Notes: a model not told the origin generated them from the letters alone. Counted from the stretch's first letter, positions 9,036 through 53,692 are shown. The stretch is 64,000 nucleotides of DNA from Candidatus Omnitrophota bacterium (GCA_043814605.1 JBDRJV010000007.1:3354-67353), one strand, 5' to 3'. Translations and numbers: made by a program.

Positions 9036-9039
9036 TCGA

Positions 9040-9361: not shown

Positions 9362-9386
9362 GGTTAACACTAGTAACAGAGGATAT

Positions 9387-10517: not shown

Positions 10518-10522
10518 AAATT

Positions 10523-24419: not shown

Positions 24420-24742
24420 TATACTTTTTATGTTTTGTTCTGTTTTGCGTAGGAATATACGGGTTGTTGATAAAGAAAAATATTATCAAATTAATCATAA
24501 GTTTAATTATTATTAATTATTCAATTCATATTTTTCTGATCCTGATCGGGTTTAGATGGCAGGGGGCAGCGCCGGTACTCGAAACCGGGGGCAAATTAAC
24601 GCTTATTGTGGATCCTTTGCCGCAAGCAATTGTTCTGGTTTTGCTAATTGTGAATATGTCGGCAATAGCATTATTAATTGCCGTAGCGATGAAGCTTTAC
24701 CAGAAATTTAAAACATTTAATATTAAAGAAATGAAAAATTAA
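24416..24742 (+). CDS. MrpC/NuoK-like small membrane subunit
   Basis: 108 aa, three TM helices, NuoK-like. Its position is after MrpB. Confidence 0.55.
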   Translation: MIYFLCFVLFCVGIYGLLIKKNIIKLIISLIIINYSIHIFLILIGFRWQGAAPVLETGGKLTLIVDPLPQAIVLVLLIVNMSAIALLIAVAMKLYQKFKTFNIKEMKN

Positions 24743-24747
24743 AACAA

Positions 24748-26265: not shown

Positions 26266-26759
26266 TGAAAAGAAAAACAGTTTTGTTTATAATTTGTGTT
26301 CTAATTTGGTGCGGATTAAATTGGCCAATCAATCGGAAATGGTTAATTATCGGCTTGGGAGTGAGCACGATTATTGCTTTAGGCTCAGGTGATATTTTTA
26401 TCCGGCGCCCCCATATTTTAATTCATTTTAAAAGATATTTTTGGCTGATTTACTATTTAGCTTTTCTTTCAACTCAAATAATAAAAGCTAATATTTATAT
26501 TATTTATTGTCTTTGCCAGCCGGCTTTATCACTGCATCCGGGGATTGTAAAAGTTAAAACAAGAATAAGAAGTGAAATGGGTCTGACTGTTTTGGCTAAT
26601 TCGATAACTTTTTCCACAGGAACTTGCGTTGTTGATATCGATAACGCTAATGGATATATATATGTACATTGGATGGATGTTAAAAGTCAAAGTATAAAAC
26701 CGGCAACTGAACTGATTGTTGAGAAATTCGAAAAAATATTAAGAGAGGTGTTTGATTAA
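26265..26759 (+). CDS. MrpE-like subunit
   Basis: 164 aa with an N-terminal TM pair. Size and position are typical of MnhE. Confidence 0.5.
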   Translation: MKRKTVLFIICVLIWCGLNWPINRKWLIIGLGVSTIIALGSGDIFIRRPHILIHFKRYFWLIYYLAFLSTQIIKANIYIIYCLCQPALSLHPGIVKVKTRIRSEMGLTVLANSITFSTGTCVVDIDNANGYIYVHWMDVKSQSIKPATELIVEKFEKILREVFD

Positions 26760-27117
26760 TAAAATGGTTGAAGATAAAATAGGGCAAAGAATTTATTGGT
26801 TAATGGGAATAATATTTTTAAGCTTAATGCTGATTGCTACGTTTTTATTATTTCCCTATTTTTTAGAACGGGCTTTATTTTTTCTTTTGATTTGTTGTTT
26901 ATTTGTTCTGATGCGAATGCTTATCGGGCCGGGAGCATGCCAAAGAATAGTTGCGGTAACAATCATTAGCATGCTGATTATCGGATTTTGCGGCATTCTC
27001 GCGTTCTTTACCCAAAAGAACTGGTATATTGATATTGCTTTAGTTTGGGTTTTTCAGTCTTTTATTGCCACACTTACTTTTGCAAAATTTCTCGAAGGAA
27101 AAAGATTTGATGATTAA
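26752..27117 (+). CDS. MrpF-like subunit
   Basis: Small three-TM protein in the MnhF position. Start is TTG 26752 or ATG 26764. Confidence 0.4.
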   Translation: MINKMVEDKIGQRIYWLMGIIFLSLMLIATFLLFPYFLERALFFLLICCLFVLMRMLIGPGACQRIVAVTIISMLIIGFCGILAFFTQKNWYIDIALVWVFQSFIATLTFAKFLEGKRFDD

Positions 27118-27145
27118 ATGATTATTGTAAAGCAGGAAGGAAGTT

Positions 27146-27493
27146 ATGATTGAATTAGGAAAAATATTTTTAATTTTAGGGTTGATATTTGATTTGATCG
27201 GAACAATTAGTTTAATGCGCATGCCGGATATTTATAGCCAATTACAAAGCGCGGCAAAAAGTGTAACCTTAGGGACTTGCTTGATTCTCTTTGGTGTGTT
27301 TTTAAGCCGGGGGATGAGTAGCGCTGGGTTCAAAACACTTTTGGTCCTGGGGTTTTTAATCCTGATCAGTCCTGTTTCTGTACATGCTTTAGCACGGGGA
27401 ATTCATAAAAGCCGAAACATAAACCTTAAAAACTATGTATGTGATCAATACCATGATGATCAATTAAGGAAAAAAGATAACATTTCTAATTAG
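27146..27493 (+). CDS. MrpG-like subunit (MnhG/PhaG)
   Basis: LMRMPDIYSQLQSAAKSVTLG matches the MnhG LRxPDxYTRLHAAxK core. Confidence 0.65.
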   Translation: MIELGKIFLILGLIFDLIGTISLMRMPDIYSQLQSAAKSVTLGTCLILFGVFLSRGMSSAGFKTLLVLGFLILISPVSVHALARGIHKSRNINLKNYVCDQYHDDQLRKKDNISN

Positions 27494-27777: not shown

Positions 27778-28020
27778 ATGCACGAAATGGGGATAGCGCA
27801 GGAAGTTTTTAAATCTGTTTTACTGGAACTGAAGGACTATGAATATAAAAAAATTAATAAAATTGTCCTGGAAGTTGGTGAATATAATTTAATTGAGCCA
27901 GAGTCTCTTCAAAATGCGTTTAGGCTGATTGCAGAAAACTCCCGGGCAAATAATGCTATCCTTGAAATAAAACAAATCCCGGGAATGGAAATAAAAATAA
28001 TACACATTGATGCAGAGTAA
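27778..28020 (+). CDS. hypA: HypA-like nickel metallochaperone lacking the zinc-finger domain
   Basis: N-terminal MHE nickel-binding motif. The N-domain and the final beta-strand (IKIIHIDAE, compare E. coli LQIRRIEIDQE) are present. There are no cysteines, so the CxxC...CxxC Zn site is precisely absent. Confidence 0.6.
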   Translation: MHEMGIAQEVFKSVLLELKDYEYKKINKIVLEVGEYNLIEPESLQNAFRLIAENSRANNAILEIKQIPGMEIKIIHIDAE

Positions 28021-29212
28021 AATTGAGCAAATTCAAATACCATTAAATAATATTTACCAAAAATCTTGGATAAAAAATAAAACGGTTTTGGCTTTAGGTC
28101 CGGAACTTAAGTCAAATTATGCTGTTATTATAAATTCTCAGGCTATTGTTTACACCGGGTTTGGAGATTTAAAAAACCCGGATAATTTTACGAGATACAA
28201 AAAACATATTTTAAAAACAATCAAAAATTTATCAAAAAAACCGCAAGTTATAGCCTGTGATTTTAATCCGATATTTTTAAGCTCCCAATTTGCCCGTAAG
28301 TTACAAGCTTCAACTTTAGGTAAAAGCAAATTAAATCCTGTATTGCATCATTATGCGCATATTGCGGCCAGCTGTGCGGTTTTAAATCTAATGCAGACAC
28401 AAGTTTTAGGTATTGTTTGTGATGGTACGGGATTGGGCGATGATGATCAGACTTGGGGCTGTGAGTTTATCAAAAAATCGGCAGGCAATTTTACACGCTG
28501 CGGACACTTAAATTATATTCCTTTGCCTGGTGCGGATTATGCGGTTATTGAGCCTTGGCGCGTCGGGCTTTCCTTGCTTTATCAAACTTTTGGTGATAAA
28601 ATATTTACTCTGGATTTAGCTTTGCTTAAACATCACCAGGATAAAACAAATATATTAGTTAAAATGATCAAACAGGGTTTTAATACGCCGATGGCTTCCA
28701 GTGCAGGTAGATTATTTGATGGAGTTGCGGCAATTTTGGGTTTTTTTAAAAAAATAAAATTTGAAGCTCAGGCAGCTGTACTTTTAGAGCAGCAGGCACA
28801 AAAAGTTATAAATTATGAAAAAGGCAAGTATGCTTATAAGATACAAAAAGCAGGTTTAAAGTTTATTCTGAACACAAATGAGTTAATTGAGGATATTGTG
28901 GCAGACTTAAGGGCTAATCAACCTAAAGAAATTATAGCCGCGCGTTTTCATAATACATTTAGCGATATGATAATAAAAATGGCGGGAAAAATTACGCAAC
29001 AAAAAGAAAATAGTAAGATTAAGGATATTGTTTTATCCGGAGGAGTTTTTTTTAATAGGATAATTTCCGATAAAGTAATCAGGGGCTTAGAAAAGTATGG
29101 ATTTAAAGTACATAAACCAGAGAACTTAATTTTATCTGATGCGGGTTTATCATTAGGGCAGGCGGTGATAGGGTATGTGTTTAGGAATTCCGGTAAAGGT
29201 AAAAAAAATTAA
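28007..29212 (+). CDS. hypF: HypF C-terminal (Kae1/TsaD-like carbamoyltransferase) domain only; the acylphosphatase, Zn-finger and YrdC domains are absent
   Basis: HHYAHIAAS, GIVCDGTGLGDDDQTWGCEF, PLPGADYAVIEPWR, SSAGRLFDGVAAILG and LSGGVFFN match the HypF C-terminal domain. Only about 25 aa precede it. Confidence 0.75.
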   Translation: MMQSKIEQIQIPLNNIYQKSWIKNKTVLALGPELKSNYAVIINSQAIVYTGFGDLKNPDNFTRYKKHILKTIKNLSKKPQVIACDFNPIFLSSQFARKLQASTLGKSKLNPVLHHYAHIAASCAVLNLMQTQVLGIVCDGTGLGDDDQTWGCEFIKKSAGNFTRCGHLNYIPLPGADYAVIEPWRVGLSLLYQTFGDKIFTLDLALLKHHQDKTNILVKMIKQGFNTPMASSAGRLFDGVAAILGFFKKIKFEAQAAVLLEQQAQKVINYEKGKYAYKIQKAGLKFILNTNELIEDIVADLRANQPKEIIAARFHNTFSDMIIKMAGKITQQKENSKIKDIVLSGGVFFNRIISDKVIRGLEKYGFKVHKPENLILSDAGLSLGQAVIGYVFRNSGKGKKN

Positions 29213-29408
29213 AGGGAATACGGCTACAGTCAGTACCGGATCTGTAGAAAAACAGATTGGTATTGAACTGACTCCGGATGTAAAAGTAGGTGATTATGTG
29301 CTTTTACATGCTGGGTTTGCGATAGAAATTATAAATGAAAAAGTTGCTCAAGAGACCTTGAAATTATTAGAAGAAATGTTTTCAATGGAAATAGATGATC
29401 AAAAATAA
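29175..29408 (+). CDS. hypC: HypC/HupF hydrogenase maturation factor
   Basis: N-terminal MCLGIP (essential Cys2), about 77 aa, OB-fold. Confidence 0.8.
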   Translation: MCLGIPVKVKKIKGNTATVSTGSVEKQIGIELTPDVKVGDYVLLHAGFAIEIINEKVAQETLKLLEEMFSMEIDDQK

Positions 29409-29428
29409 TATGGTTAAGGCAAAGGCAA

Positions 29429-30520
29429 TTGAAGCTTATGGATAAAACTAGAAATAATAAATTAGCCAGTCAGCTCCGGCAAACGATTACCCGTTTTTGT
29501 AAAAAAATAGAAAAAAATATATCAATCATGGAAGTCTGCGGTACGCATACAGTGGCTTTGTTTCGTTCCGGGATTAGAGAAATGCTGCCTTCTAATATGA
29601 GAATCATCTCCGGGCCCGGATGTCCGGTTTGCGTAACCGATCAAGCTGATGTTGACCGCGCCATCGGTCTTTGTCAATTAGAGAATACTATTGTTACCAC
29701 TTTTGGTGATATGATGCAGGTTCCGGGGACTGAAGTTAGTTTAGAACAGATGAAAGCACAGGGCCGAGATGTACGGGTTGTATATTCTGCGTTGGATGCT
29801 TTAGAAATTGCTAAAACTAATAATGAAAATGTTATTCATATTGCGGTTGGATTTGAAACTACAGCTCCGACAATTGCAGCAGTTTTAAAAAGAGCTAAAC
29901 AAGAAAAGGTAAATAATTTTTATGTATTGAGTGCGAATAAAATTGTACCGCCGGCTTTGGAGTGTTTGGTTGCTTGCGCAAAAAGCAGGATTAATGCGTT
30001 TATTTTACCCGGACATGTTAGTGCCATTATTGGAGCAAAACCATACCAATTTCTTGCGGATAAGTATAATAAACCCTGTGTGATTGCCGGATTTGAGCCT
30101 GTAGATATTTTGCAGGCAATCGCAATGTTGTGTAAACAAATAGTCGAACAAAAATCGAGGATTGAGATACAATATACACGTTGTGTGCAAAGGGAGGGAA
30201 ACATTTTAGCTCAGAAAATATTAAGAGAAGTTTTTGAGGTTCGGGATGCACAATGGCGCGGCTTGGGGGTAATGAAGAAAAGTGGATTTTTTTTAAATAA
30301 AAATTATGCAGGATTTGAGGCGCGAGAAAATTTTAAGGTAAAAATTCCTAAGCCAAAAAAAACGCCTTGCCGCTGCGGTGATGTTTTGCAGGGGGTAATT
30401 TTGCCGCCGGAATGCAAACTGTTTCAGAATAAATGTACGCCAGAGAATCCGATTGGACCGTGTATGGTTTCAACAGAAGGAACTTGCGCAGCATATTATC
30501 GTTACGCCAGAGTTTCTTAA
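29429..30520 (+). CDS. hypD: HypD hydrogenase maturation factor (Fe-S)
   Basis: CGTHT, GPGCPVCVT, FETTAP and the C-terminal CPVC-type cysteines. ATG 29438 is an alternative start. Confidence 0.9.
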   Translation: MKLMDKTRNNKLASQLRQTITRFCKKIEKNISIMEVCGTHTVALFRSGIREMLPSNMRIISGPGCPVCVTDQADVDRAIGLCQLENTIVTTFGDMMQVPGTEVSLEQMKAQGRDVRVVYSALDALEIAKTNNENVIHIAVGFETTAPTIAAVLKRAKQEKVNNFYVLSANKIVPPALECLVACAKSRINAFILPGHVSAIIGAKPYQFLADKYNKPCVIAGFEPVDILQAIAMLCKQIVEQKSRIEIQYTRCVQREGNILAQKILREVFEVRDAQWRGLGVMKKSGFFLNKNYAGFEARENFKVKIPKPKKTPCRCGDVLQGVILPPECKLFQNKCTPENPIGPCMVSTEGTCAAYYRYARVS

Positions 30521-30540
30521 CTTATTATCAGAGGAAAAAA

Positions 30541-31569
30541 TTGAATGACCAATTAAAAAATAAAAACGTTACATTAGCTTACGGTAATGGCGGACAATTA
30601 ATGCAGCAGCTGATCAATAATTTGATCAAGGCTAATTTTGGCAATCCGATATTAAATAAACTGGATGATGCTGCTGTTTTAAACGGGGTTGGCTTTAGGG
30701 AACATCTTGTATTTACTACAGATTCTTTTGTGGTGAGTCCGATATTTTTTCCGGGTGGCGATATCGGTAAGCTGGCGGTTTGCGGTACAATAAATGACCT
30801 TTGCATGATGGGTGCAAAACCATTATATTTAAGTCTGAGTATGATTATTGAGGAGGGATTTGCTTTTAAAGATCTAGAAAGAATTGTTAGCTCCATTAAG
30901 AAAACAATTAAAATAGCTGGGGTTAAAATAGTTTGCGGTGATACTAAGGTTGTAAATAAAGGTAATTGTGATAAAATATTCATTAATACATCTGGAATCG
31001 GCAGTATTGATAATCGCACAAATATTAGTGCATCTAAGGCTAAACCTGATGACCTAATTATCGTGAGCGGGCCAATTGGTGAACATGGAATTGCAATTAT
31101 TAGTCAACGAAAGGGGCTCGGGTTTAAAACAAAATTGAAAAGTGATTGTGCGCCTTTAAATGATCTTGTCCTAAATTTAATGAAATATAAAAATAAAATT
31201 CATGTTTTCAGAGATCCGACACGCGGGGGGCTTGCGAGTGTATTAAATGAAATTGCGCAACTTTCCAATGTTGGCATAGAAGTTGATGAAGTAAAGATTC
31301 CCGTGAGTAATGCAGTAAAGGGCGCGAGTGCAATTTTGGGATTGGATCCTTTGTACCTGCCGTGTGAAGGAAGATTAGTCGCTGTGGTTAGCCCGGATAA
31401 AATGCCGCAAATTTTAAACTTAATGCAAAAAAATAAAAAAGGCAGGGGAGCAAGAGTTATTGGCCGAATAAAAGCCGGGCACAAAAAAGAGGTATATTTA
31501 AATACTGTAATTGGCGGCAGGCGGATTCTTGATTTACCGATCCGGGAACAAACACCGCGAATTTGTTAA
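30541..31569 (+). CDS. hypE: HypE (carbamoyl dehydratase, PurM-like)
   Basis: PurM-like fold motifs and the invariant C-terminal PRIC. TTG start 7 nt after an AGAGGA RBS, with no overlap with hypD. Confidence 0.85.
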   Translation: MNDQLKNKNVTLAYGNGGQLMQQLINNLIKANFGNPILNKLDDAAVLNGVGFREHLVFTTDSFVVSPIFFPGGDIGKLAVCGTINDLCMMGAKPLYLSLSMIIEEGFAFKDLERIVSSIKKTIKIAGVKIVCGDTKVVNKGNCDKIFINTSGIGSIDNRTNISASKAKPDDLIIVSGPIGEHGIAIISQRKGLGFKTKLKSDCAPLNDLVLNLMKYKNKIHVFRDPTRGGLASVLNEIAQLSNVGIEVDEVKIPVSNAVKGASAILGLDPLYLPCEGRLVAVVSPDKMPQILNLMQKNKKGRGARVIGRIKAGHKKEVYLNTVIGGRRILDLPIREQTPRIC

Positions 31570-31594: not shown

Positions 31595-32401
31595 ATGATC
31601 GTAAGAGAAGCAGATATTACCCGGGCAATAATCAAAACAGCTACGGATGAATTACTTGATAATATTGAAGTGGATGTGATCATTGCTGGCGGCGGTCCCG
31701 CCGGACTTACGTGTGCGCGTTACTTAGGTCAAGCGGGGAAAAAAGTTGTACTTTTTGAGCGTAAATTAAATTATGGGGGGGGAATGCCGGGCGGAGGGAT
31801 GTTATTTCCCCGGATAGTGATTGAGAAACAAGCAAAATCAATCCTTTCTGAAATAAATGTGAGATTAAAACCTTATGATAAAAATTATTACACTGCAGAT
31901 TCAGTGGAAGCAATTTCTAAAATGGGTGTTGCAGCAATCGATGCTGGATTAAGAATATATCCTGCAGTTACAGTTGAAGATTTGGTGATTCGAGCGAATA
32001 ATAAAGTGCAAGGTGCAGTAATAAATTGGTCTGCAGTACAAATTGCCGGATTACATGTTGATCCATTAGTAATTATGTCTGAATACGTTGTGGATGCGAC
32101 CGGGCATGATGCCGATATTACAAATACGTTATTAAGAAAGAATCCTAATGTAAAACTAAAAACAAAAACAGGTAAAGTTATAGGTGAAAAATCAATGTGG
32201 GCTCAGCAGGGAGAAAATTTAATTCTGTCTAATACAAAGGAAGTTTTTCCCGGGCTTTTTCTGGCGGGTATGGCGGTTAATGCTGTTGCCGGGGTACCAC
32301 GGATGGGAGCTGTTTTTGGCGGTATGCTGCTTTCGGGAAAAAAAGCGGCAATGCTAATTTTAGCCAGATTAAATAATAAAAAGAAAAGAAAGTTAAATTA
32401 A
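31595..32401 (+). CDS. thi4: Thiamine thiazole synthase, Thi4 family (archaeal/eukaryotic type)
   Basis: VDVIIAGGGPAGLTCA FAD/NAD Rossmann motif and Thi4-family spacing. AGGAGA RBS. Confidence 0.8.
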   Translation: MIVREADITRAIIKTATDELLDNIEVDVIIAGGGPAGLTCARYLGQAGKKVVLFERKLNYGGGMPGGGMLFPRIVIEKQAKSILSEINVRLKPYDKNYYTADSVEAISKMGVAAIDAGLRIYPAVTVEDLVIRANNKVQGAVINWSAVQIAGLHVDPLVIMSEYVVDATGHDADITNTLLRKNPNVKLKTKTGKVIGEKSMWAQQGENLILSNTKEVFPGLFLAGMAVNAVAGVPRMGAVFGGMLLSGKKAAMLILARLNNKKKRKLN

Positions 32402-32419
32402 TTACCGGAGGTTAGAAAA

Positions 32420-33619
32420 ATGGCCAAAACTATAGCTGAAATTAATAATAAAATTAAAAAAGGCGAAGCTGTTGTTGTTACTAAAGAGGAAATGCTGGAA
32501 ATTGTGAAAAAAAAGGGGACAAAAAACAGCGCAGAATATGTAGATGTTGTTACAACAGGAACTTTTGGCCCGATGTGTTCCTCAATGGCAATTTTTAATA
32601 TTGGCCATTCAAAACCAAAAATTAAAATACAAAAGGCTTGGCTGAACGATGTTGAATGCTATTGCGGCTTGGCAGCGGTGGACATGATTATCGGAGCTAC
32701 TGAATTATCAACTAAAGATCCGGCTAATACTTTTGGGCCCGGAGAGTTTAAATACGGGGGAGCGCATGTAATTGAAGATTTGGTGGCGCATAAGGATCTT
32801 AAACTAAAGGCAATTGGTTATGGAACAGATTGTTATCCCCGTAAAGAATTAGAAACTTTTATAAATTTAGATGATTTAAATGAAGCCTGGCTGACTAATC
32901 CGCGTAACGCCTATCAAAACTATAATGTTGCCGTGAATCTTTCGGATAAAACAATTTACACTTATATGGGTGTTTTAAGGCCGGATTTATCAAATGCAAA
33001 TTATTGCAGTGCCGGCCAGCTTTCTCCGTTATTAAATGACCCAGGTTTTAGAGCCATAGGTATTGGTACAAGAATTTTTCTCGGGGGAGGAATCGGGTAT
33101 ATTTTCTGGCACGGGACTCAGCATACCACTGATGTTAAGCGTACAAAAGGCGGAGTGCCTGTTACGCCTTCCGGAACTTTGGCCGTCAACGGCGATTTAA
33201 AAGGCATGAGCCAAGAATGGTTAAGGGCAGCTTCAATGCAGGGTTACGGAGTAAGTCTGGCAGTAGGGATTGGGGTGCCGATACCGATTATTGATGAGGA
33301 AATGGTCAACAGTGTATGCGTACGGGATGAGGAAATTTTTACGCAGATTATTGATTATAGCCATGATTATCCTGATGGTAAATCAAATTCCTTAGGACAG
33401 GTTAATTATGAACAGCTTAAGTCCGGATTGATCAATATTAAAGGCAAAACTGTGCCTACAGCAGGGCTTTCCAGCTACTACAAAGCTAAGCAAATATGCC
33501 AAATTTTAAAGGAAAATATTCTTAAAGGAGATTTTAGTTTAACCGAACCAGTACACCCCCTGCCACGGGAAGGTTCCGGCGTTAATTTTAAAGCTTTAAA
33601 AATGAAAAATGTTAAGTAA
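32420..33619 (+). CDS. COG1900 / DUF39 protein (homocysteine-biosynthesis / L-aspartate-semialdehyde sulfurtransferase family)
   Basis: The N-terminus EINNKIKKGEAVVVTKEEM...VDVVTTGTFGPMCSSMA is characteristic of COG1900. Confidence 0.7.
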   Translation: MAKTIAEINNKIKKGEAVVVTKEEMLEIVKKKGTKNSAEYVDVVTTGTFGPMCSSMAIFNIGHSKPKIKIQKAWLNDVECYCGLAAVDMIIGATELSTKDPANTFGPGEFKYGGAHVIEDLVAHKDLKLKAIGYGTDCYPRKELETFINLDDLNEAWLTNPRNAYQNYNVAVNLSDKTIYTYMGVLRPDLSNANYCSAGQLSPLLNDPGFRAIGIGTRIFLGGGIGYIFWHGTQHTTDVKRTKGGVPVTPSGTLAVNGDLKGMSQEWLRAASMQGYGVSLAVGIGVPIPIIDEEMVNSVCVRDEEIFTQIIDYSHDYPDGKSNSLGQVNYEQLKSGLINIKGKTVPTAGLSSYYKAKQICQILKENILKGDFSLTEPVHPLPREGSGVNFKALKMKNVK

Positions 33620-33633: not shown

Positions 33634-34245
33634 TTATTTTAAAGAACCTTCTAAAAATTCTTTAACATTATTGGGAGAAAACATAATAAAAAAACTGCCT
33701 TTAATATTTTTTCGCTCAATTTCAAAAAATGTTTCCAAGAGAATAATCTGAACCTCATCCTGTAAAACTTCATTAAAGGCAATATTGCAGACAGTTTCTA
33801 ATGTGCCGCAAATTAAGCTAGGAGTTGAATGCAGAATTACTTTTTTGCTCAGGCTGGAGAGTGTTCCCAAATAAGCAGAAATGACAATATTGCCAATTTC
33901 TTTTAAAAGTGAAACACCGTATTCAGTCTTAGTTCCTAGATTATCCTTATTCTGTTCTGAACATACAGTGTCAATTAAACTATAGGCGCTTTTTTCGGGA
34001 AATATTAATAAAATATTACCAGTAAGATTACTGAGAAGCTGCATTCTTATTCCTACTAAAATATCTGGTATATCTTTTAGTTCAGAGATTAGTTTATCCC
34101 GATCAATGATTTTTAATCCAGGAATGCTCAATCCAATTTTCTGATTTAAAACTTGCGATAAAGCAACAGCGGCATTTCCGATGCAAATATTACCGACTTC
34201 CTTAAGCATATCAATAAAATCAGCATCAATTTTTACTTTTTTCAT
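33634..34245 (-). CDS. CheC-like protein (CheC/CheX/FliY phosphatase family)
   Basis: Duplicated EVGNICIGNAAVALSQ and EIGNIVISAYLGTLS motifs, which are the CheC D/ExxN...GxxAxALS signature. Confidence 0.65.
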   Translation of the reverse strand: MKKVKIDADFIDMLKEVGNICIGNAAVALSQVLNQKIGLSIPGLKIIDRDKLISELKDIPDILVGIRMQLLSNLTGNILLIFPEKSAYSLIDTVCSEQNKDNLGTKTEYGVSLLKEIGNIVISAYLGTLSSLSKKVILHSTPSLICGTLETVCNIAFNEVLQDEVQIILLETFFEIERKNIKGSFFIMFSPNNVKEFLEGSLK

Positions 34246-34296
34246 GAAATTTTAAAACCTCGAGTTTAAATTTATTTTCTTATTAATTATATGCTG

Positions 34297-36051
34297 TTAG
34301 TTAGACTTTTCCTTTAATTTAATAAATTTCTTTTTTATTAATTCCACAAAAATATCCACAATTTTTGGATCCAATTGATCCGGAGTGCATTTTTTTAATA
34401 ATTTAATTGCTTTTTGCACGGAAAAAGCCTTACGGTAAGGCCGGTCCGCAGTCATGGCTTCAAAAGTATCCGCAACAGCTAAAATACGCGAACCAATAGG
34501 GATCTGATCACCTTTAATGCCGTTGGGATATCCACCTCCGTTATGGCGTTCATGGTGGTGATAAATCATAGTTTTAATTTCATTAGATAAATCTGTATTA
34601 TTAATAATGCTAAGAGTTGCAGAAAGCGGATGAATAACTTTTTCTAATAATTTTTTATTAATTATCACGTTATTCATTAAATCTTGGGGAGTATCTTTTG
34701 CCGGTTCGTTCAATTCTCCTAAATAAAAATTTACCGGTTCTAAAATTCGCTTGCCGATTGCCGGGTGATTCTTAATAATTTCATATTCTGCATAAGTTAA
34801 GGTACTCGGTTTTGCCAGGATTTTTTCCGGGATTCCGATTTTTCCAATATCATGTAGTATCCCGGCAATTTGGATGCCTTCGATCATTATTTTGGGCAAA
34901 TTAAGGGCTTGAGCAATGGATACTGCATAATAAGAAACTAAATCAGAATGGCCACGGGTACAGGGGTCTTTTTCCTCAATTGCTTGCGCTAAGGCTTTGA
35001 TTGTACTTAAATAAGTTGTTCTTAAATTTCTGTAAAGAATTGTATTTTCAATAGCTACGGCTACATGATTAGAAAGTGTAATTAAAGACTGCTGATTTTT
35101 TTGATTAAAACCATCATTTTTTAATGAATAAATACTTAACATTCCCCGGGTATTTCCTTTTGATGTTATCGGAGTATTAAGTATAGATTTTATATCTTTA
35201 GGTAAAACTTTTTTCTTAAAACGTTTTGTGGGGCCGGGCACTTTTTTAAGAATTACTTCAATACTGCGTGCATTAATTTTTTTCTTTTTTAACCCGTAGA
35301 TGACTAAACTGAGGTTTCTTTTTAAAAAGTTGATTGTCTTATGGCTTAAAGAGTTTTGGGAACAAATCAATAAAGTATATTTATTTTTTTCAATAATCAA
35401 GAGAGAATAAATATCAAAAGGAAAAAGCTCAAATATACAAACATTCAAAACTTCAAATAAACTCTCTTGATTTGTCGCGGAGTTAAGGGCACAGCTGATC
35501 ACATTGAATCTGAATAAATGCTGGATTTTTTCTTCGGCATCAATATAAAGTTTAGCGTTTTCAATAGCAATAGAACTTTCCGAAGCAAATTTTGCAAAAA
35601 TATTTAATTCCTCCTCTGTGAATTCTTTTGCGCCGGGAATCCGGTTTAAATTGATTACGCCGATTAATTTATCCGCTAAAAGCAGGGGAATAGAAATTGA
35701 GGATTTTAGATTTTTGCGGGGTTTTTTCTTGAAAATAGTATAAAAATTTGTATTATCAATAATTAAAGGCTTTTTGCTGCGAGCAACAATCCCAGCAATC
35801 CCTTTGCCGATTTTTATGTGTGCTCTTTTAACAATGGATTTTTTTATGCCACGGAAGGCTTTGATCCTTAATTCTTTTTGTTTTTTATCAAAAAGCATGA
35901 GAGAGCCAGAATTTGCATGAGTTTGTCTGAGCATTGTTTCCAGGATAATATTAAGCAATTTATTAAAATCATAGGAAGCACCCAGTACATTGCTAATTTC
36001 CTGCAGGCTGGCAAGTTTTAATGTTTTTTCCGTAGATTTAGGTCTATTCAT
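34297..36051 (-). CDS. GAF-GAF-HD-GYP domain protein (predicted c-di-GMP phosphodiesterase)
   Basis: Two GAF-like regions. HD motif GILHDIGKIGIP. HHERHNGGGYPNG is the GYP motif. Confidence 0.8.
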   Translation of the reverse strand: MNRPKSTEKTLKLASLQEISNVLGASYDFNKLLNIILETMLRQTHANSGSLMLFDKKQKELRIKAFRGIKKSIVKRAHIKIGKGIAGIVARSKKPLIIDNTNFYTIFKKKPRKNLKSSISIPLLLADKLIGVINLNRIPGAKEFTEEELNIFAKFASESSIAIENAKLYIDAEEKIQHLFRFNVISCALNSATNQESLFEVLNVCIFELFPFDIYSLLIIEKNKYTLLICSQNSLSHKTINFLKRNLSLVIYGLKKKKINARSIEVILKKVPGPTKRFKKKVLPKDIKSILNTPITSKGNTRGMLSIYSLKNDGFNQKNQQSLITLSNHVAVAIENTILYRNLRTTYLSTIKALAQAIEEKDPCTRGHSDLVSYYAVSIAQALNLPKIMIEGIQIAGILHDIGKIGIPEKILAKPSTLTYAEYEIIKNHPAIGKRILEPVNFYLGELNEPAKDTPQDLMNNVIINKKLLEKVIHPLSATLSIINNTDLSNEIKTMIYHHHERHNGGGYPNGIKGDQIPIGSRILAVADTFEAMTADRPYRKAFSVQKAIKLLKKCTPDQLDPKIVDIFVELIKKKFIKLKEKSN

Positions 36052-36677
36052 GACTTTTTCATGCTTTTAGCAAAAGCTTTACAAGCTTTTAAGATTAACC
36101 GCATTGAATTGGGATCAAAAGCAATAAAAAATTTTCCCTTAACAGAATTTGTGAATTCATTAAAATATGTTTCAATCAGGATAACATTAGGATTTTGTTT
36201 TTTGCTTGTTCCAAAAACGCTTTTTATTACCATTTCGGGAACTCCGTCTGTAAATTGGGGGCAGGATAAGTATACTGGCAATTTAGACATTGCGCTTAAT
36301 GTTGAGACGTAAGCAGAAATAACAATGTTTCCGATTTCCTTGAGTGAGGAAATTCCGATTTGTGTAATTAGCTTGGTTTTTTGCATTTTAGGACTGCCTA
36401 CGAGAAGCTCCATTAGTTGATATGCGCTTTCCTGCGAAAAAAGCAGTAATATTTGACTGTTAATCATCCCTAAAGTTTCCATTTGAATGCCAATTATGGG
36501 GATACCGTCTTTATCAATCGTGGAAGCTAGTTTTACCAGTGGTACGGATTTAAGGGTAGGGACTTGGAGTTCGATTTTTTTAAATAAAATTTGAGCTAAC
36601 GCAACGGCAGCATTACCGGCACAGATATTTCCTACTTCTCTTAAAATATCGCGCTGATTTTTATTAAATTTGTTCAT
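36048..36677 (-). CDS. CheC-like protein, second paralogue
   Basis: EVGNICAGNAAVALAQ and EIGNIVISAYVSTLS. The gene overlaps the HD-GYP gene by 4 nt. Confidence 0.65.
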   Translation of the reverse strand: MNKFNKNQRDILREVGNICAGNAAVALAQILFKKIELQVPTLKSVPLVKLASTIDKDGIPIIGIQMETLGMINSQILLLFSQESAYQLMELLVGSPKMQKTKLITQIGISSLKEIGNIVISAYVSTLSAMSKLPVYLSCPQFTDGVPEMVIKSVFGTSKKQNPNVILIETYFNEFTNSVKGKFFIAFDPNSMRLILKACKAFAKSMKKS

Positions 36678-36888
36678 ATTTTGTAAATCCGTTTGATTTT
36701 AAAAAAATCGTTAACTCCTTTATTTTTAAACTATAACATAAACATCAACCAGTGTCAATAAATTTTGTTTTCATTTTTGAGTATTTATGATATTATATGT
36801 ATTCAGTTTGTTTGCAAAAGAGTACCGAGGCGAATTTTTTCCGATTTAATCAGTTTTAAGGATAAAAAAAGGGTAAAAGAGGCTAAAC

Positions 36889-38190
36889 ATGGGCGAAACT
36901 TTTACAGGTGGAAAACATTTAGAAAATTATAAATATTTGAGTAAAGATGCCCGGATTACAGTGATGCCAATACCTGATCAAGTAATCATTCCTTTATCTC
37001 AACATACAGGATCAATAACTCAACCTGTTGTAAAAAAAGGGGATAGGCTAAAAGTAGGCACTGTTATTGGTACAACAGATAAGTTTATTTCCGCAATTGT
37101 GCATTCGAGTGTTTCCGGGACAGTAAGTAATATTGTTGATTATAATCATCCTGTTTTAGGGCAATCTCCCTCTGTAATTATTGATTCTGATGGAAAAGAT
37201 GAGCGGGAAAATACAATAATTCCGAGAAAAGTAGTGGATTCTTTAGATAAAGATAAATTACTAGAAATTATTAAACAAGCAGGTATTGTAGGTTTAGGCG
37301 GAGCAGCTTTTCCCACGCATGTGAAATTGAATCCGCCTAATCCAGTAGATACATTAGTGATTAATGGGGCTGAATGCGAGCCGTATTTAACCTGTGATTA
37401 TCGTTTAATGATTGAACATACTAATGATATTTTAAAAGGAATTTTACTGCTAAAAAAAATACTTTCTGTTTCTTTAGTGCTGATTGGTATTGAAGAAGAT
37501 AAATCAGAAGCAATGAGTATGATGCGGAATAAAATTGTTGAAAGGGGTTTAGCGGCATTAAAAGTTATCCCGCTTCAGGCAAAGTATCCGCAGGGAGCAG
37601 AAAAACAATTGATTAAGGCTACTTTAGACCGGGAAGTTCCCTCAGGCAAGCTTCCTTTTGATGTCGGCGTGGTTGTGTGTAATGTGGGAACAGCCTATGC
37701 AGTATACGAAGCCGTATATTTAAGTAAGCCACTTTATGAAAGAGTTATTACTGTAACCGGAAATCCGATTAAGAATCCCTCCAATCTAAGAGTAAGAATC
37801 GGGACTAGATTTTCTGAGATAATTTCTTATTGCGGTTTAAAGACTCAGGCCATAGGAAAAATAATTATGGGAGGGCCGATGATGGGCTTGGCCCAATTTA
37901 CAGACGATGTTCCAGTAATTAAAGGGACTTCGGGGATTCTTTTGCTAAGCTCAAAAGACAGTACAATGAGTGAACCAGGGCCATGTATTCGTTGTGGCCG
38001 CTGCGCTACTTTATGTCCTGTAGGGATGTTACCTTATGCGTTAAGCTTATGTGTCGAAGCAAAAAAAATAGATCAAACGCAAATTTATAATGCGCAAGAT
38101 TGCATGGAGTGCGGAATTTGCACTTATGTTTGCCCGGCAAAAAGAAAAATTTTAGAAAGTATCCGGTTGGTAAAGGCGGTTATGAAATGA
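36889..38190 (+). CDS. rnfC: Rnf/Nqr-type complex subunit C
   Basis: GIVGLGGAAFPT (NADH/FMN site), NGAECEPYLTCD, and two 4Fe-4S motifs CIRCGRCATLCP and CMECGICTYVCP. Confidence 0.85.
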   Translation: MGETFTGGKHLENYKYLSKDARITVMPIPDQVIIPLSQHTGSITQPVVKKGDRLKVGTVIGTTDKFISAIVHSSVSGTVSNIVDYNHPVLGQSPSVIIDSDGKDERENTIIPRKVVDSLDKDKLLEIIKQAGIVGLGGAAFPTHVKLNPPNPVDTLVINGAECEPYLTCDYRLMIEHTNDILKGILLLKKILSVSLVLIGIEEDKSEAMSMMRNKIVERGLAALKVIPLQAKYPQGAEKQLIKATLDREVPSGKLPFDVGVVVCNVGTAYAVYEAVYLSKPLYERVITVTGNPIKNPSNLRVRIGTRFSEIISYCGLKTQAIGKIIMGGPMMGLAQFTDDVPVIKGTSGILLLSSKDSTMSEPGPCIRCGRCATLCPVGMLPYALSLCVEAKKIDQTQIYNAQDCMECGICTYVCPAKRKILESIRLVKAVMK

Positions 38191-39170
38191 CATTAAATTT
38201 TAAAAATAATATTATTTTGAGCAGTTCCCCTCACTTACGGAGTCCGGAAACAACATCTAAAATTATGTGGACTGTATTCTTTTGTTTGATTCCTTCAGGG
38301 CTTGTCAGTATCTATGTTTTTGGTATTTCAACCTTGTGGATTATGCTCAGCGCAGTACTGGGGGCAATGCTCAGTGAATGGATATGTTCACAAATACAAA
38401 AAAAACCCGCTACACTTAGTAACGGAAGTGCGGTTTTAACGGGATTATTATTAGCTTATAATCTGCCGCCGGGCTCTCCTTTGTGGATGGCTTTTTTAGG
38501 ATCATGTGTTGCCATAATTTTGGGAAAAGTTGTTTTTGGCGGTTTAGGTTTCAATATTTTTAATCCTGCTTTAATCGGCCGCGTATTTTTAATGGCGAGC
38601 TTTCCGGTATTAATGACACGCTGGCCAGCACCTTTTCAGTTAGACGCTGTAACTGCTCCTACGCCATTAGCTATACTTAAAGATAGTTTTAGTCAAGCCC
38701 CCATTCTAGATAAAGCAGAAATTATTCATTACTCAATACGAGATTTAATCCTCGGGTTTAGGGGCGGATGCATAGGAGAAGCATGTATTTTAGCTTTAGT
38801 GATTGGCGCAGCTTTTTTAATGCTTAAAGGATATATTTCCTGGCATATCCCAGGTAGTTTTATCGGCACGGTTGCTGTTTTTACCTGGATTTTTGCGGGA
38901 GAAAGTTTATTTACCGGTAATTTTTTACTGCATATTCTCTCCGGCGGACTTGTTCTCGGAGCTTTCTATATGGCCACGGATTATGTTACCGGGCCCATAA
39001 CTGTTTATGGAAAAGTACTTTTTGGTATTGGTTGTGGAATTATTACCTGTGTAATCCGGCTGTGGGGAGGATATCCGGAAGGAGTATCTTATTCAATTTT
39101 ATTAATGAATATTCTAACTCCTTTGATGGATAAATTTATCCGGCCGCGAAGATTGGGAGAGAAAAAGTGA
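38187..39170 (+). CDS. rnfD: Rnf/Nqr-type complex subunit D (covalent-FMN membrane subunit)
   Basis: SSPHLRS near the N-terminus. SGGLVLGAFYMATDYVTGP contains the FMN-attachment Thr. Start ATG overlaps the rnfC stop as ATGA. Confidence 0.85.
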   Translation: MTLNFKNNIILSSSPHLRSPETTSKIMWTVFFCLIPSGLVSIYVFGISTLWIMLSAVLGAMLSEWICSQIQKKPATLSNGSAVLTGLLLAYNLPPGSPLWMAFLGSCVAIILGKVVFGGLGFNIFNPALIGRVFLMASFPVLMTRWPAPFQLDAVTAPTPLAILKDSFSQAPILDKAEIIHYSIRDLILGFRGGCIGEACILALVIGAAFLMLKGYISWHIPGSFIGTVAVFTWIFAGESLFTGNFLLHILSGGLVLGAFYMATDYVTGPITVYGKVLFGIGCGIITCVIRLWGGYPEGVSYSILLMNILTPLMDKFIRPRRLGEKK

Positions 39171-39961
39171 ACGCAGTAATTCTGGCGCTATTATCACTAT
39201 CTGGATTAGGTTTTTGTTTTGGATTGTTATTAGCTTGGGCATCAAAAAAATTTCAGCTAAAAGTTGATCCGCGTATTATTGAGATTAATGATTTATTGCC
39301 GCAAGCAAATTGTGGTGCTTGTGGGTTGGCGGGTTGTACAAACTTTGCGGAAGCATTGGTTGAGGAAAAAGTAGAATTGAATGCTTGTGTTGTTTGTAGT
39401 TCTGATAACAAAAAGCAAATTGCACATGTACTGGGGCTGGATTCAGAAGGGGCTAAACTTGCGGCTAGATTAGCTGTGGTCAGTTGTGGCGGTGGCGTTA
39501 ATTGCAAAGATAAGTTTGAATACAGAGGTTTAAAAGACTGCCGTGTTGCCGTATTAACTATGCAAGGGAATAAGCAATGTAGATTTGCTTGTGTTGGCCA
39601 GGGCAGCTGCGTGGATGTTTGTCCCTTTAATGCAATTAAAATGGCTGATACCGGATTGCCGATAATTGATCAAGCGGCGTGTCGAGGTTGCCAGAAATGT
39701 GTGGCGATTTGCCCGCGTCAGCTAATTTTTATGATTGATCGGGAAAAGAAAATTTATATAAACTGCAATTCCCATGATAAAGGATTTGTGGTTACAAAAA
39801 ATTGTAAAGTCGGGTGTATTGGATGCGGAAAATGTGTAAAAACGTGTCCGACAAAAGCGATAAAGCTGGTGGATAATCTCGCGGTTATTGATTATAAAAA
39901 ATGCATAAATTGTACGAAGTGTGTAAAGGAGTGCCCCACAAAAACAATTGCAATTTTATGA
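39167..39961 (+). CDS. rnfB: Rnf subunit B (membrane-anchored polyferredoxin)
   Basis: N-terminal TM helix, the CGACGLAGC cluster, and three or more further 4Fe-4S Cx2Cx2Cx3CP motifs. GTG start with a GGAGAG RBS. Confidence 0.8.
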   Translation: MNAVILALLSLSGLGFCFGLLLAWASKKFQLKVDPRIIEINDLLPQANCGACGLAGCTNFAEALVEEKVELNACVVCSSDNKKQIAHVLGLDSEGAKLAARLAVVSCGGGVNCKDKFEYRGLKDCRVAVLTMQGNKQCRFACVGQGSCVDVCPFNAIKMADTGLPIIDQAACRGCQKCVAICPRQLIFMIDREKKIYINCNSHDKGFVVTKNCKVGCIGCGKCVKTCPTKAIKLVDNLAVIDYKKCINCTKCVKECPTKTIAIL

Positions 39962-41280
39962 ATGCCAGAAAAACATCTCATTTCCCAAAAAAAGTTGCGG
40001 CAATTATAAAAAGGGTTAATTTCAAATCTGGATTATCTTTCCTGTTAGATAATGATGAGTTGATTAAAATCGAAAAAACTCAAGCAGATCATATTTTCGG
40101 AATTGCGGTTGATTTAGGCACGACATCAATTTGTGTTAGCTTGTGTAATTTAGAAAACAAACAGGAGCTAGCCCAAGTTATCGTGAGAAATAAACAATAT
40201 ATTTACGCACAAGATATCCAGGATTTTTCGCAAACGGCGGATAAGCTGCAGCATAATCAGCAATCATTATCTCGGGAACTTATTTACTCTGTAAATAAAG
40301 CAATTAAAGATTGCCTGCGAAAATCAGGCGTAGAAGAAAATAGAATTTTTACAGCGATAGTGGCCGGCAATCCGGTAATGATCAATTTATTGTTACAGAC
40401 TGCAATAAAGACGAACCTGCTTAAAAAACAAAAAAATCAATATCAGGAAAGCTATTTATTTAAGGCTGCCATGCTCGGGCTAAATATTAATCCTCAGGCA
40501 AATATTAGATTTTTGCCAGGCATAGATTCAGTGATTGGTTCGGATACGGTTTCCGCTATTTTAAAACTAGGAATGTTTAAAACTAAAGACCAGATTCTTT
40601 GCATTGATGTGGGGATAAACAGTAAAATTATTTTGGGTAATAATAAGAAAATTACTGTAGCTTGTTCAAAGAGTAGTTCTTCTTTTGAAGGCCACTTGCT
40701 AAAATGCGGCATGATTGCTAAACCTGGGGCGATTGAATGGGTAAGAATAAATAAAGGAGAAATTAAAATATTAACCGTGGGGCATATCCGGCCGGTCGGC
40801 ATTAGCGGAAGCGGGGTTATTGATACGATCAGTGAACTGTTGAAAAATAAAATTATTAATTCTCAAGGACAGATGAAATCTGATTCTTTCGTTGTTTATC
40901 AGGATAAAAGTTCCTGCGTGGAATTAACCGCTGATGATATTCGAAAGATTCAAGTGAGTAAGGCGATAATTTTTGCGGGAATAAAAATATTAATGAAAAA
41001 TTTAAATGTGGGGTTTGATCAGATAAAGAAAGTATTTATTTGCGGGGAATTGGGCAGTTATTTGAATACTGAGCATATTGTTCTCCTGGGAATGGTACCG
41101 GTTGAATTAAAAAATAAAATCAATTTTGGCGGTAATGCCGCATTTTTAGGGGCAAAAATGGTATTGCTGAATAAAAAATATTTAAACCAAATGAATAAAA
41201 TCCAAAAATTAATTAAACATATTGATTTAAAGCAAGATCAGGAATTTTTAGGTTTGTATAAAAGAGCATTAAATTTTTAG
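39958..41280 (+). CDS. ASKHA-superfamily ATPase (DUF4445 / RACo C-terminal-domain-like), lacking a ferredoxin domain
   Basis: GIAVDLGTTSI phosphate-1 motif and an ASKHA-like second half (GISGSGVID). Translationally coupled to rnfB through an ATGA overlap. I reject the 19-aa N-terminal extension of the listed ORF. Confidence 0.5.
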   Translation: MNARKTSHFPKKVAAIIKRVNFKSGLSFLLDNDELIKIEKTQADHIFGIAVDLGTTSICVSLCNLENKQELAQVIVRNKQYIYAQDIQDFSQTADKLQHNQQSLSRELIYSVNKAIKDCLRKSGVEENRIFTAIVAGNPVMINLLLQTAIKTNLLKKQKNQYQESYLFKAAMLGLNINPQANIRFLPGIDSVIGSDTVSAILKLGMFKTKDQILCIDVGINSKIILGNNKKITVACSKSSSSFEGHLLKCGMIAKPGAIEWVRINKGEIKILTVGHIRPVGISGSGVIDTISELLKNKIINSQGQMKSDSFVVYQDKSSCVELTADDIRKIQVSKAIIFAGIKILMKNLNVGFDQIKKVFICGELGSYLNTEHIVLLGMVPVELKNKINFGGNAAFLGAKMVLLNKKYLNQMNKIQKLIKHIDLKQDQEFLGLYKRALNF

Positions 41281-41289: not shown

Positions 41290-42339
41290 ATGAAGTTGAA
41301 AAAGGCAATTGTCGCAATGAGTGGGGGAATAGATTCATCTTTTTGTGTTCATTTTTTGCAAAAAGCTGGTTATCAAGTCAGTGGATTGACAATGCGGCTG
41401 AGTAATGATTCAGAAACAATCACCCGGGCAAAAAAAATGGCTGAAGTTTTGGGGATTAAACATCAGATTGTAGACATTAGAGATGTTTTTAAAAAGGCAA
41501 TCATGGATTATTTTGCTTATGAGTATACGCAGGCGAGAACACCTAATCCTTGCTTAAGGTGTAATAAATTTATAAAATTTGGCATTCTTATGCAGATTGC
41601 TAAAAAGGCGAAATCTTTTTTTGCTACAGGGCACTATGCGCGTGTATTACGGGATAGGGAAAAAAATATTTATGAATTGAGAAAAGGCATCGATGCAAAA
41701 AAAGATCAGTCCTATGTTTTATACGCTTTAAAACAAGACCATTTATCCAGATTATTATTGCCCCTAGGGGATTTTACCAAAGAGCAAGTTTACCGCGAGA
41801 TTAAAAAATTAAAGCTTCCTTTAAGACCAGGAAAGGAAAGCCAGGATATTTGTTTTATTCCGGATCGGGATTATGCGGGATTTATTAAAAAACATATTCC
41901 AAATTATGTGCCGCATGCGGGTAATATTGTTACTCCAGAGGGGGAAGTTTTAGGTCGGCATAAAGGGATAATTCATTATACAATAGGACAAAGAAAAGGA
42001 CTGGGCATTGCCCATAATGAACCTTTATTTGTTTGTGGTTTTGATGTTAAAAAAAATCAAGTAGTTGTTACCACAAATAAGAATTTAGGCGCCAGTACAT
42101 TTTTAGTCCGGGAAGTATCTTTTATGCACCGAAAATATCTGCGGGATGATTTTATCGTGCGTGTTAAAATTCGGTATCATCATATTCCTCAAACAGCCAG
42201 GGTTAAAAGAATTGGTTCAAAAATTGTACAGGTAAAATTTAAGAATTTACAACGGGCAATAACTCCGGGACAAGGGGCTGTATTTTATAAAAACGATTTA
42301 GTCTTAGGCGGGGGAGTAATTGCTCAAGTTATAAGATAA
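41290..42339 (+). CDS. mnmA: tRNA-specific 2-thiouridylase
   Basis: PP-loop AMSGGIDSS, catalytic Cys region, and a C-terminal beta-barrel. Confidence 0.9.
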   Translation: MKLKKAIVAMSGGIDSSFCVHFLQKAGYQVSGLTMRLSNDSETITRAKKMAEVLGIKHQIVDIRDVFKKAIMDYFAYEYTQARTPNPCLRCNKFIKFGILMQIAKKAKSFFATGHYARVLRDREKNIYELRKGIDAKKDQSYVLYALKQDHLSRLLLPLGDFTKEQVYREIKKLKLPLRPGKESQDICFIPDRDYAGFIKKHIPNYVPHAGNIVTPEGEVLGRHKGIIHYTIGQRKGLGIAHNEPLFVCGFDVKKNQVVVTTNKNLGASTFLVREVSFMHRKYLRDDFIVRVKIRYHHIPQTARVKRIGSKIVQVKFKNLQRAITPGQGAVFYKNDLVLGGGVIAQVIR

Positions 42340-46725: not shown

Positions 46726-46801
46726 TGGTGGAGCTGGGGGGACTCGAACCCCCGACCAACAGACTGCCAGTCTGCTGCGCTCCCAACTGCGCTACAGCCC
46801 C
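46726..46801 (-). tRNA. tRNA-Ala (anticodon GGC)
   Basis: Reverse complement GGGGCTGTAGCGCAGTTGGGAGCGC...CTGGCAG...GGGGGTTCGAGTCCCCCCAGCTCCACCA. It has the G3-U70 identity pair. CCA is encoded. Confidence 0.85.
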
Positions 46802-53206: not shown

Positions 53207-53284
53207 TCTTCGTAATCTATTGTTAATCGTGGTAATCAGGGATAATCCATTCCAGGAGTGAGGATTATACCAGCTGAGGTGAAT

Positions 53285-53692
53285 ATGGAAAAGAAAAGAG
53301 TTGTCTTAACGTTTCCGCATGATTTATTAGGTAAGCCGATAACTTATCATCTAATCAAAGATTATAATCTAATCGTAAATATTCTCAAAGCCAAAATTAC
53401 CCCGAAAGAGCAGGGGTTGCTGGTACTGGAAATTGAAGGAGATAAGCATCAATTACAGGAAGGGGTTAACTTTTTAAAAAAAACCGGAGTTAAAATTGAG
53501 GCTTTAATTGAAGATATTAAATGGGATTCGGATAAGTGTATCCATTGTACGGAATGCGTAACTGTCTGCCCGACACAAGCTTTTATTTTAGATCGCCAAA
53601 AAATGGAAATTAGTTTTTATAAAGATAAATGTATTGCTTGCGGATTGTGTGTTTCTCTGTGTCCCTATCGGGCCATAGAAATAATCATATAA
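53285..53692 (+). CDS. NIL-domain / 2x[4Fe-4S] ferredoxin protein (the usual partner of COG1900 proteins)
   Basis: N-terminal NIL-like region and C-terminal CIHCTECVTVCP...CIACGLCVSLCP. Confidence 0.6.
   Translation: MEKKRVVLTFPHDLLGKPITYHLIKDYNLIVNILKAKITPKEQGLLVLEIEGDKHQLQEGVNFLKKTGVKIEALIEDIKWDSDKCIHCTECVTVCPTQAFILDRQKMEISFYKDKCIACGLCVSLCPYRAIEIII

Follow-up and report, generated by a model that had tools for sequence, protein, structure and literature searches.

The DNA analysed is a 64,000-nucleotide stretch from a Candidatus Omnitrophota bacterium, hereafter the window, in which three subunit genes of the Rnf complex, rnfC, rnfD and rnfB, stand without rnfG, rnfE and rnfA and are followed by a gene for a DUF4445 protein of the RACo-type ASKHA fold. 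The first gene, rnfC (36889..38190, +), encodes the NADH- and flavin mononucleotide (FMN)-binding subunit of 433 aa with RnfC_N, Complex1_51K and SLBB domains, scores 524 bits against TIGR01945 (cutoff 246) and carries two [4Fe-4S] CxxCxxCxxxCP motifs at aa 366-377 and 405-416 (nt 37984-38019 and 38101-38136, +). The polytopic membrane flavoprotein subunit of 327 aa is encoded by rnfD (38187..39170, +), matching PF03116 with 382 bits, TIGR01946 with 325 bits (cutoff 207) and RnfD of C. tetanomorphum (7zc6_D) with 281 bits. The membrane-anchored polyferredoxin of 264 aa encoded by rnfB (39167..39961, +) has a hydrophobic N-terminal helix (residues 1-26), a PF04060 FeS domain, additional Fer4 motifs and 27 Cys; it passes TIGR01944 with 113 bits (cutoff 69), and its best NCBIfam model is the Methanosarcina-type rnfB at 262 bits, under that model's cutoff. 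The fourth gene (39958..41280, +) encodes 440 aa from its ATGA start and holds the Raco_middle (PF17651) and RACo_C_ter (PF14574) domains only. All four genes are joined by 4-nt overlaps read from the sequence, ATGA at rnfC/rnfD, GTGA at rnfD/rnfB and ATGA at rnfB/DUF4445. An earlier note on this DNA had named these four genes and described them as translationally overlapping, and the family-model matches and the junctions bear this out. Proteins identical to RnfC (MFH1459075.1), RnfD (MFH1459076.1) and the DUF4445 protein (MFH1459078.1) are found at NCBI in a Candidatus Omnitrophota metagenome-assembled genome, on a contig of 264,263 bp.

The absence of rnfG, rnfE and rnfA from the locus, also claimed earlier, was confirmed. 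The canonical Omnitrophota subunits used in tblastn against the 64-kb window gave only noise (best E 0.04) and had no match in any of the related trio loci (15 loci besides the window), and no Rnf-Nqr, FMN_bind or ApbE domain was detected by Pfam among most of the larger open reading frames (ORFs) of the window. Two tandem 191-aa ORFs at 51616 and 52182 were considered as RnfE/RnfA and are actually a HAD phosphatase and a MarC-family protein.

Related loci with the same rnfC-rnfD-rnfB trio were collected from RnfD scans of species-representative genomes and JGI metagenomes together with contig look-ups, and were read about 10 kb to each side. Among the matches listed there are at least 16 distinct trio loci (the window, L001, L003-L011, L088-L090, L168 and L169), and in each of the 16 rnfB comes immediately after rnfD. 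Synteny over about 25 kb is common to the lineage. Upstream the order is hyp genes, Thi4, HcyBio and divergent CheC/GAF-HD-GYP/CheC genes, then rnfC-D-B-(DUF4445)-(mnmA), and downstream follow a small ORF, FloA and two NfeD genes, all on the opposite strand, and then LeuRS. A phylogeny had been proposed in the earlier note; a neighbour-joining tree of RnfC+RnfD places the 11 trio loci that have both genes in a single clade, with the canonical Omnitrophota sequences as its sister group and without a long stem branch. The window carries the rnf locus of one roughly family-level Candidatus Omnitrophota lineage. The trio operon sits at another chromosomal position than the canonical operons of sister Omnitrophota, the flanking genes being different, and the canonical flanks (MFS, purN, PGM and enolase) are all missing from the 64-kb window. 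Deletion of the three genes in situ was considered through positional orthology and was neither demonstrated nor excluded; the canonical flanks share no genes with those of the trio. At L008, a basal trio locus, the place of DUF4445 and mnmA after rnfB is taken by a gene (8778-10727) for a multi-pass membrane protein of 649 aa, and a C-terminal GGDEF (diguanylate cyclase) domain is apparent in this protein by eye only.

The three subunits that are present are orthodox by their sequences, with a constraint like that of subunits of the six-subunit complex and not a relaxed one. Of the columns in which at least 90-93 % of the canonical sequences agree, the trio clade retains 70 of 71 in RnfD, 78 of 79 in RnfC (all but N204D) and 46 of 47 in RnfB (all but G141A). 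Both of these substitutions are fixed in the trio clade; the RnfC position is Asn in 62/63 canonical sequences, and the RnfB position, directly before a cluster Cys, is Gly in 44/46. When conservation was defined on other phyla only, deviation in the trio clade and in canonical Omnitrophota was 3.3 % against 3.2 % for RnfD, 3.2 % against 5.9 % for RnfC and 6.6 % against 5.1 % for RnfB. The ratio of nonsynonymous to synonymous substitution rates (dN/dS) of rnfC, rnfD and rnfB is 0.13-0.23 in the genome pairs also used for DUF4445.

The one changed position in RnfD concerns the flavinylation motif D153-A-V-T-A-P-T159 (38643..38663, +), which in alignments with RnfD of C. tetanomorphum and A. woodii stands opposite 'LDGVTTATPL' of the former. 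The covalent-FMN Thr had previously been placed in SGG...YMATDYVT (aa 261-268), which is wrong, the alignment putting the acceptor at T159. The acceptor Thr is retained in the window and in all 14 trio-type RnfD sequences scored, whereas the residue before it is Ala in 151/151 canonical RnfD and Pro in 13/14 of the trio type, the window included. By its D153 and T159 the site corresponds to the motif recognised by ApbE, D-x-x-[S/T]-G-A-[S/T], in which Ala stands where the window has Pro; an Ala-to-Val exchange halved flavinylation in another target (PMC12052999).

The DUF4445 protein has the fold that was claimed for it. It matches RACo (4c1n/3zyy) with 179 bits, and its AlphaFold2 model (predicted local distance difference test score, pLDDT, 88) finds RACo 3zyy_X as the top Foldseek match with a template-modelling (TM) score of 0.89 and a root-mean-square deviation of 2.2 A. 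A donor domain of its own is missing, there being no Fer2, linker or Fer4 and just 8 scattered Cys without a cluster motif, and the protein carries a 49-residue N-terminal extension. Loss of the phosphate-binding motifs had been named beforehand as a finding that would weaken the earlier interpretation, and the motifs proved to be canonical only in part. Phosphate-1, AVDLGTTS, is kept (nt 40105-40128), as are the DxG/GxxG invariants D217, G219, G363 and G366. Phosphate-2 is non-canonical, reading DVGINSK (40606..40626, +) for DxGTNxE, with I/N/K at the Thr/Asn/Glu positions. The adenosine motif is GELG where G[AGS]FG is usual, and 'GPAFEG' has become 'SSSFEG'. The census of retrieved proteins found DxGTNxE in 171 of the 172 scorable RACo-like proteins outside the trio lineage, and Lys replaces the phosphate-2 Glu in 18/23 of the trio-linked clade. 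With the invariants retained nucleotide binding is possible and catalysis uncertain; the Glu-to-Lys change makes ATP hydrolysis in the sub-clade of the window doubtful.

At 38-51 % identity and 282-457 bits, the homologues of this protein make up a compact clade of 28 database clusters, beyond which scores fall sharply to ordinary RACo-like proteins of 600 aa at no more than 219 bits, and all 12 members whose contexts were read belong to the trio lineage. Basal members (P0013, P0014 and P0020) still have Fer2, and in a neighbour-joining tree forms with Fer2 and canonical motifs (P0013 and P0020) are basal while Fer2-less Lys forms are derived. With a dN/dS of 0.15-0.26 in close relatives the gene is under purifying selection, and its reading as a decaying pseudogene was rejected because these values are the same as those of the rnf genes. 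In 4 of the 16 trio loci (L004, L005, L008 and L011) DUF4445 is absent with rnfCDB intact, and the placement of these loci in the RnfC+D tree, for example L011 against its sister L003, implies at least 3 independent losses. DUF4445 is dispensable to the trio, yet it is maintained by selection where present.

The neighbourhoods of DUF4445 in relatives, which the earlier note had also proposed to inspect, showed that rnfB precedes DUF4445 with or without rnfG, rnfE and rnfA. At L026 (8688-14993) the genes after a canonical rnfC-D-G-E-A-B operon are one for thioredoxin and, overlapping it, one for a ferredoxin-less DUF4445 protein of 396 aa, which in the neighbour-joining tree is sister to the trio-linked clade. 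This L026-type family comprises about 100 clusters of 37-99 % identity, nearly all of about 396 aa and with an intact DxGTNGE, mostly unnamed or labelled Omnitrophota. The contexts examined were those of L026, of four diverse members whose contigs are long and whose identity to the L026 protein is 60, 51, 47 and 40 % (L084, L085, L086 and L087, each with its operon at about 2800-9200) and of one further locus (L105). Canonical rnfCDGEAB lies directly before DUF4445 in 6/6 of them, counting as part of it the thioredoxin gene (109 aa) that stands between rnfB and DUF4445 in 5/6; purN comes after DUF4445 in 6/6, with PGM-enolase-divIC further downstream. Canonical Omnitrophota operons without DUF4445 have purN directly after rnfB. 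Since the same adjacency exists in six-subunit operons, the link between Rnf and DUF4445 is independent of the missing subunits, and it is older and wider than the loss of rnfG, rnfE and rnfA. No paper pairing DUF4445 with Rnf was found in the literature searched, where the Omnitrophota rnf-thioredoxin-DUF4445 operon is undescribed.

The explanation favoured here, with middling confidence, is that the trio belongs to an orthodox Rnf whose RnfG, RnfE and RnfA are encoded elsewhere in the genome. It is rated the most likely because a full complex that still forms would be expected to leave the constraint on all three proteins as it was, and no change of constraint is seen. The only known acceptor of RnfB is the RnfA/E cluster and the only known donor of the periplasmic FMN of RnfD is RnfG (PMC12174285). 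A split rnf operon also has a precedent in the phylum, Ca. Kaelpia having rnfB on another contig than rnfCDGEA (Williams 2021 Table S5). Sister Omnitrophota have rnfC-D-G-E-A-B, often with thioredoxin and DUF4445; from the operon of the trio lineage the G-E-A block and the thioredoxin gene have gone, the remainder making up the tightly overlapped rnfC-rnfD-rnfB-DUF4445(-mnmA) operon. In a ferredoxin:NAD+ oxidoreductase of this kind RnfC would be the NADH side, RnfD the membrane flavin carrier and RnfB the ferredoxin side, with RnfG, RnfE and RnfA supplied from another genome locus. DUF4445 would not substitute for the missing subunits and would be the lineage's derived copy of an Omnitrophota accessory protein that is co-transcribed with rnfB.

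For this accessory protein a role in re-reducing a corrinoid enzyme is proposed, with electrons drawn from RnfB or the ferredoxin pool. With ATP as the driving force, RACE-type ATPases transfer an electron to Co(II)-corrinoids from an Fe-S domain of their own (PMC7317905), and RamA-like DUF4445 proteins are genetically required for B12 reactivation of MetH enzymes without activation domain (PMC5764234; Price et al. 2018). As the DUF4445 protein lacks an Fe-S domain of its own and is co-transcribed with rnfB, RnfB or the ferredoxin pool probably feeds it for corrinoid reactivation, and it is plausible that RnfB or ferredoxin stands in for the Fe-S domain in the whole Omnitrophota family and not in the trio lineage specifically. 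The window protein is like RACo (3ZYY/4C1N), RamA and the RamA-like DUF4445 proteins in its fold, in Raco_middle plus RACo_C_ter and in a phosphate-1 of the DxGTT type. It is unlike them in having neither the N-terminal [2Fe-2S] and linker nor a C-terminal 2x[4Fe-4S], in its altered phosphate-2, and in being encoded inside an rnf operon with no corrinoid protein or methyltransferase nearby.

Several observations weigh against an orthodox complex with subunits encoded elsewhere and against the corrinoid role attached to it. None of rnfG, rnfE and rnfA is found within 10 kb in the 16 trio loci, nor in the 37 kb upstream or 23 kb downstream in the window. In about 150 other loci, from many phyla and including about 12 other Omnitrophota, they adjoin rnfD wherever the sequence sufficed; as these canonical loci never split the three genes from rnfD, moving exactly the internal three would be unusual. 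The Omnitrophota species representatives compared, 8 with the trio and about 10 canonical, include no genome holding both the trio and a canonical rnfD, which is weak evidence because the GTDB/JGI scans used exact 8-mer peptide patterns and the comparison covers the matches listed. The sole changed conserved position of RnfD adjoins the flavinylated Thr, whose FMN is fed by RnfG, and a change from Ala to Pro at this RnfG-facing site fits an altered periplasmic partner. The same lineage has also lost the thioredoxin gene and remodelled or lost DUF4445. No corrinoid genes (B12-binding, CoFeSP, methyltransferase or MetH) were seen among the window ORFs scanned.

A rival reading is that the lineage is without RnfG, RnfE and RnfA entirely and makes a true three-subunit derivative of Rnf, an RnfC-D-B enzyme lacking the RnfA/E [2Fe-2S] gate. 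Such an enzyme is held to be possible and clearly less probable than an orthodox complex. It could work as a one-way conduit from NADH through RnfC to the riboflavin and FMN of RnfD and on to a periplasmic acceptor, or as a non-pumping ferredoxin:NAD+ oxidoreductase in which RnfB would pass electrons directly to RnfC or RnfD. Its case is built on the absence of the three genes from all 16 loci and the whole window, on the clean D/B overlap junction kept through a deep clade, and on the clade-specific Ala-to-Pro change. A conceptual precedent is offered by the one-way 'NQR/RNF-like' systems, in which NqrB/RnfD is fused to an NqrF-like NAD-binding domain and is encoded in one cluster with ApbE and with an FMN-binding protein that is extracytosolic (Meheust et al. 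2021, PMC8238504). They resemble the trio in combining an RnfD-type membrane protein with a cytosolic NAD(P)H-side module without RnfA/E, but the RnfD of the window is unfused (327 aa) and paired with RnfC and RnfB, and neither PF00175 nor ApbE nor FMN_bind was found in the window. Many Omnitrophota are ultra-small cells (PMC10066038), and in such cells we would find gene loss unsurprising. On the other side, none of RnfC, RnfD and RnfB shows relaxed constraint, and since RnfD keeps both its flavinylated Thr and the conserved periplasmic loop, a periplasmic partner is implied. The neighbourhood has no conserved candidate for a replacement partner, and the literature searched has no such Rnf.

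An enzyme of three subunits nevertheless stays a serious alternative because of the unusual relocation that would otherwise be needed, the Ala-to-Pro change, the loss of thioredoxin and the remodelling of DUF4445. In its fuller form, that of a minimal RnfC-D-B Rnf with a retuned RnfD flavin site and a remodelled, ferredoxin-less RACo-type protein coupled to RnfB, it is proposed tentatively, as more probably wrong than right. In Rnf mechanisms electrons travel by way of the RnfA/E cluster and the RnfG shuttle. If real, a lineage with RnfCDB only and under full constraint would show what the RnfC-RnfD half does alone and provide a natural minimal system for coupling, and a minimal RnfCDB would amount to a new architecture in an ancient redox pump that is supposed to be indivisible.

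Considerably less probable is the model of the earlier note, in which RnfC, RnfD and RnfB are an electron input dedicated to the DUF4445 ATPase and ATP replaces coupling to an ion gradient. The ATGA coupling of rnfB and DUF4445, the lack of an Fe-S donor domain in DUF4445 next to a polyferredoxin, the uphill electron transfer that RACE-type ATPases do drive (PMC7317905) and the purifying selection on DUF4445 all speak for it. However, the data do not support a dedicated module of trio and ATPase as the explanation of the missing subunits, as the same adjacency occurs with complete six-subunit operons in all six canonical contexts, DUF4445 has gone from four of the 16 trio loci in at least three independent losses that left rnfCDB intact, the motif DVGINSK has Lys where 171/172 scorable relatives have Glu, and RnfC, RnfD and RnfB give no hint of another role. 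Nor is a substrate protein encoded nearby, among the window ORFs scanned.

It is likewise improbable that the trio is a specialised paralogue, a partial copy with a side function next to a full rnfCDGEAB elsewhere, for example at the ancestral MFS...purN-PGM-eno position: the differing flanks speak for it, and the branching of the trio clade in the RnfC+D tree, as the sister group of all canonical Omnitrophota, is compatible with an old duplication, but the relaxed constraint expected of a redundant partial copy is not seen, and, as a weak point limited to the matches listed, no genome is in both groups (8 trio and about 10 canonical representatives).

Compared with the Rnf complex as known (RnfCDGEAB, EC 7.2.1.2; 7ZC6 from C. 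tetanomorphum, 9ERI from A. woodii and 8AHX from A. vinelandii), the window locus is alike in its full-length RnfC, RnfD and RnfB, in having rnfC first and in the translational coupling of the genes. It differs in having no rnfG, rnfE or rnfA in the operon or within tens of kb, in the Pro before the flavinylated Thr and in the added DUF4445 gene. With the canonical operon of other Omnitrophota it shares the phylum, sister RnfC+D clades and a [2Fe-2S]-less DUF4445 directly downstream of rnfB, whereas the canonical operon has rnfG, rnfE and rnfA, usually thioredoxin, and a DUF4445 of about 396 aa that starts at phosphate-1 and reads DxGTNGE. Whatever the answer for rnfG, rnfE and rnfA, canonical rnf is in many Omnitrophota co-transcribed with a ferredoxin-less RACE-type ATPase and often with thioredoxin as well, which suggests Rnf or ferredoxin as the source of the electrons with which these bacteria reactivate corrinoids or carry out a similar low-potential repair. 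The trio lineage would be mis-scored by metabolic reconstructions in which matches to RnfC, RnfD or RnfB count as 'Rnf present'.

Downstream of DUF4445, and 9 nt past its stop, lies mnmA for tRNA 2-thiouridine synthase (41290..42339, +; NF001138, 377 bits), which is probably co-transcribed with the rnf and DUF4445 genes. It follows the rnf genes in 10/16 trio loci, directly after rnfB where DUF4445 is missing (L005 and L011). A functional link of mnmA, or of the nearby sulfur-incorporation genes Thi4 and HcyBio, to rnf was considered and rejected; mnmA is merely the next gene in the trio lineage, its place being occupied by purN in canonical lineages, and its adjacency was not taken as a sign of function. 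Across the trio lineage HcyBio, and Thi4 where present, lie shortly before the rnf genes. Divergent from rnfC is a trio of CheC-like, GAF-GAF-HD-GYP and CheC-like genes (33634-36677, minus strand), which is kept in most loci of the lineage, some of them having a single CheC gene. The 211-nt AT-rich gap between rnfC and the CheC-like gene on the minus strand (36678..36888) is the presumed promoter region. Promoter-like hexamers are present there on both strands, at 36758..36730 on the minus strand (TTGACA-17-TATAGT) and at 36768..36796 on the plus strand, and are suggestive only; in promoter and terminator scans the region-wide counts were not above those of shuffles.

Further features of the window stand apart from the rnf genes. 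At 23410-27493 there is an Mrp/Mnh-type antiporter module (MbhD, MnhB, NuoK-like, MnhD, MnhE, MrpF and MnhG), followed at 28007-31569 by hypF (C-terminal part), hypD and hypE; no gene for a hydrogenase catalytic subunit was seen among the window ORFs of at least 100 aa that were scanned. HcyBio (COG1900-type), a NIL-domain 2x[4Fe-4S] ferredoxin and aspartate-semialdehyde dehydrogenase (31595-33619, 53258-53692 and 57535-58593), seen in the window along with a Thi4-type thiazole synthase, could belong to a sulfide-dependent homocysteine route. At 46726-46801 (minus) ARAGORN finds a tRNA-Ala(GGC) where Rfam reports a tmRNA with 47.3 bits against a gathering threshold of 47, model positions 1-374 being fitted to 76 nt; this match is almost certainly just the tRNA-like part and not a tmRNA gene. 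A 726-aa helicase with 'archaeal helicase domain 4' and a C-terminal HhH (Hel308/Ski2-like), unusual in a bacterial genome, is encoded at 13245-15425 (minus). Near the start of the window an 823-aa ORF without a Pfam match stands upstream of genes for an exosortase (EpsH), a DUF3485 (EpsI-like) protein and a sugar transferase (395-2866, 3449-5015 and 5410-6222), and this region may be an export cluster of the exosortase/PEP-CTERM type.

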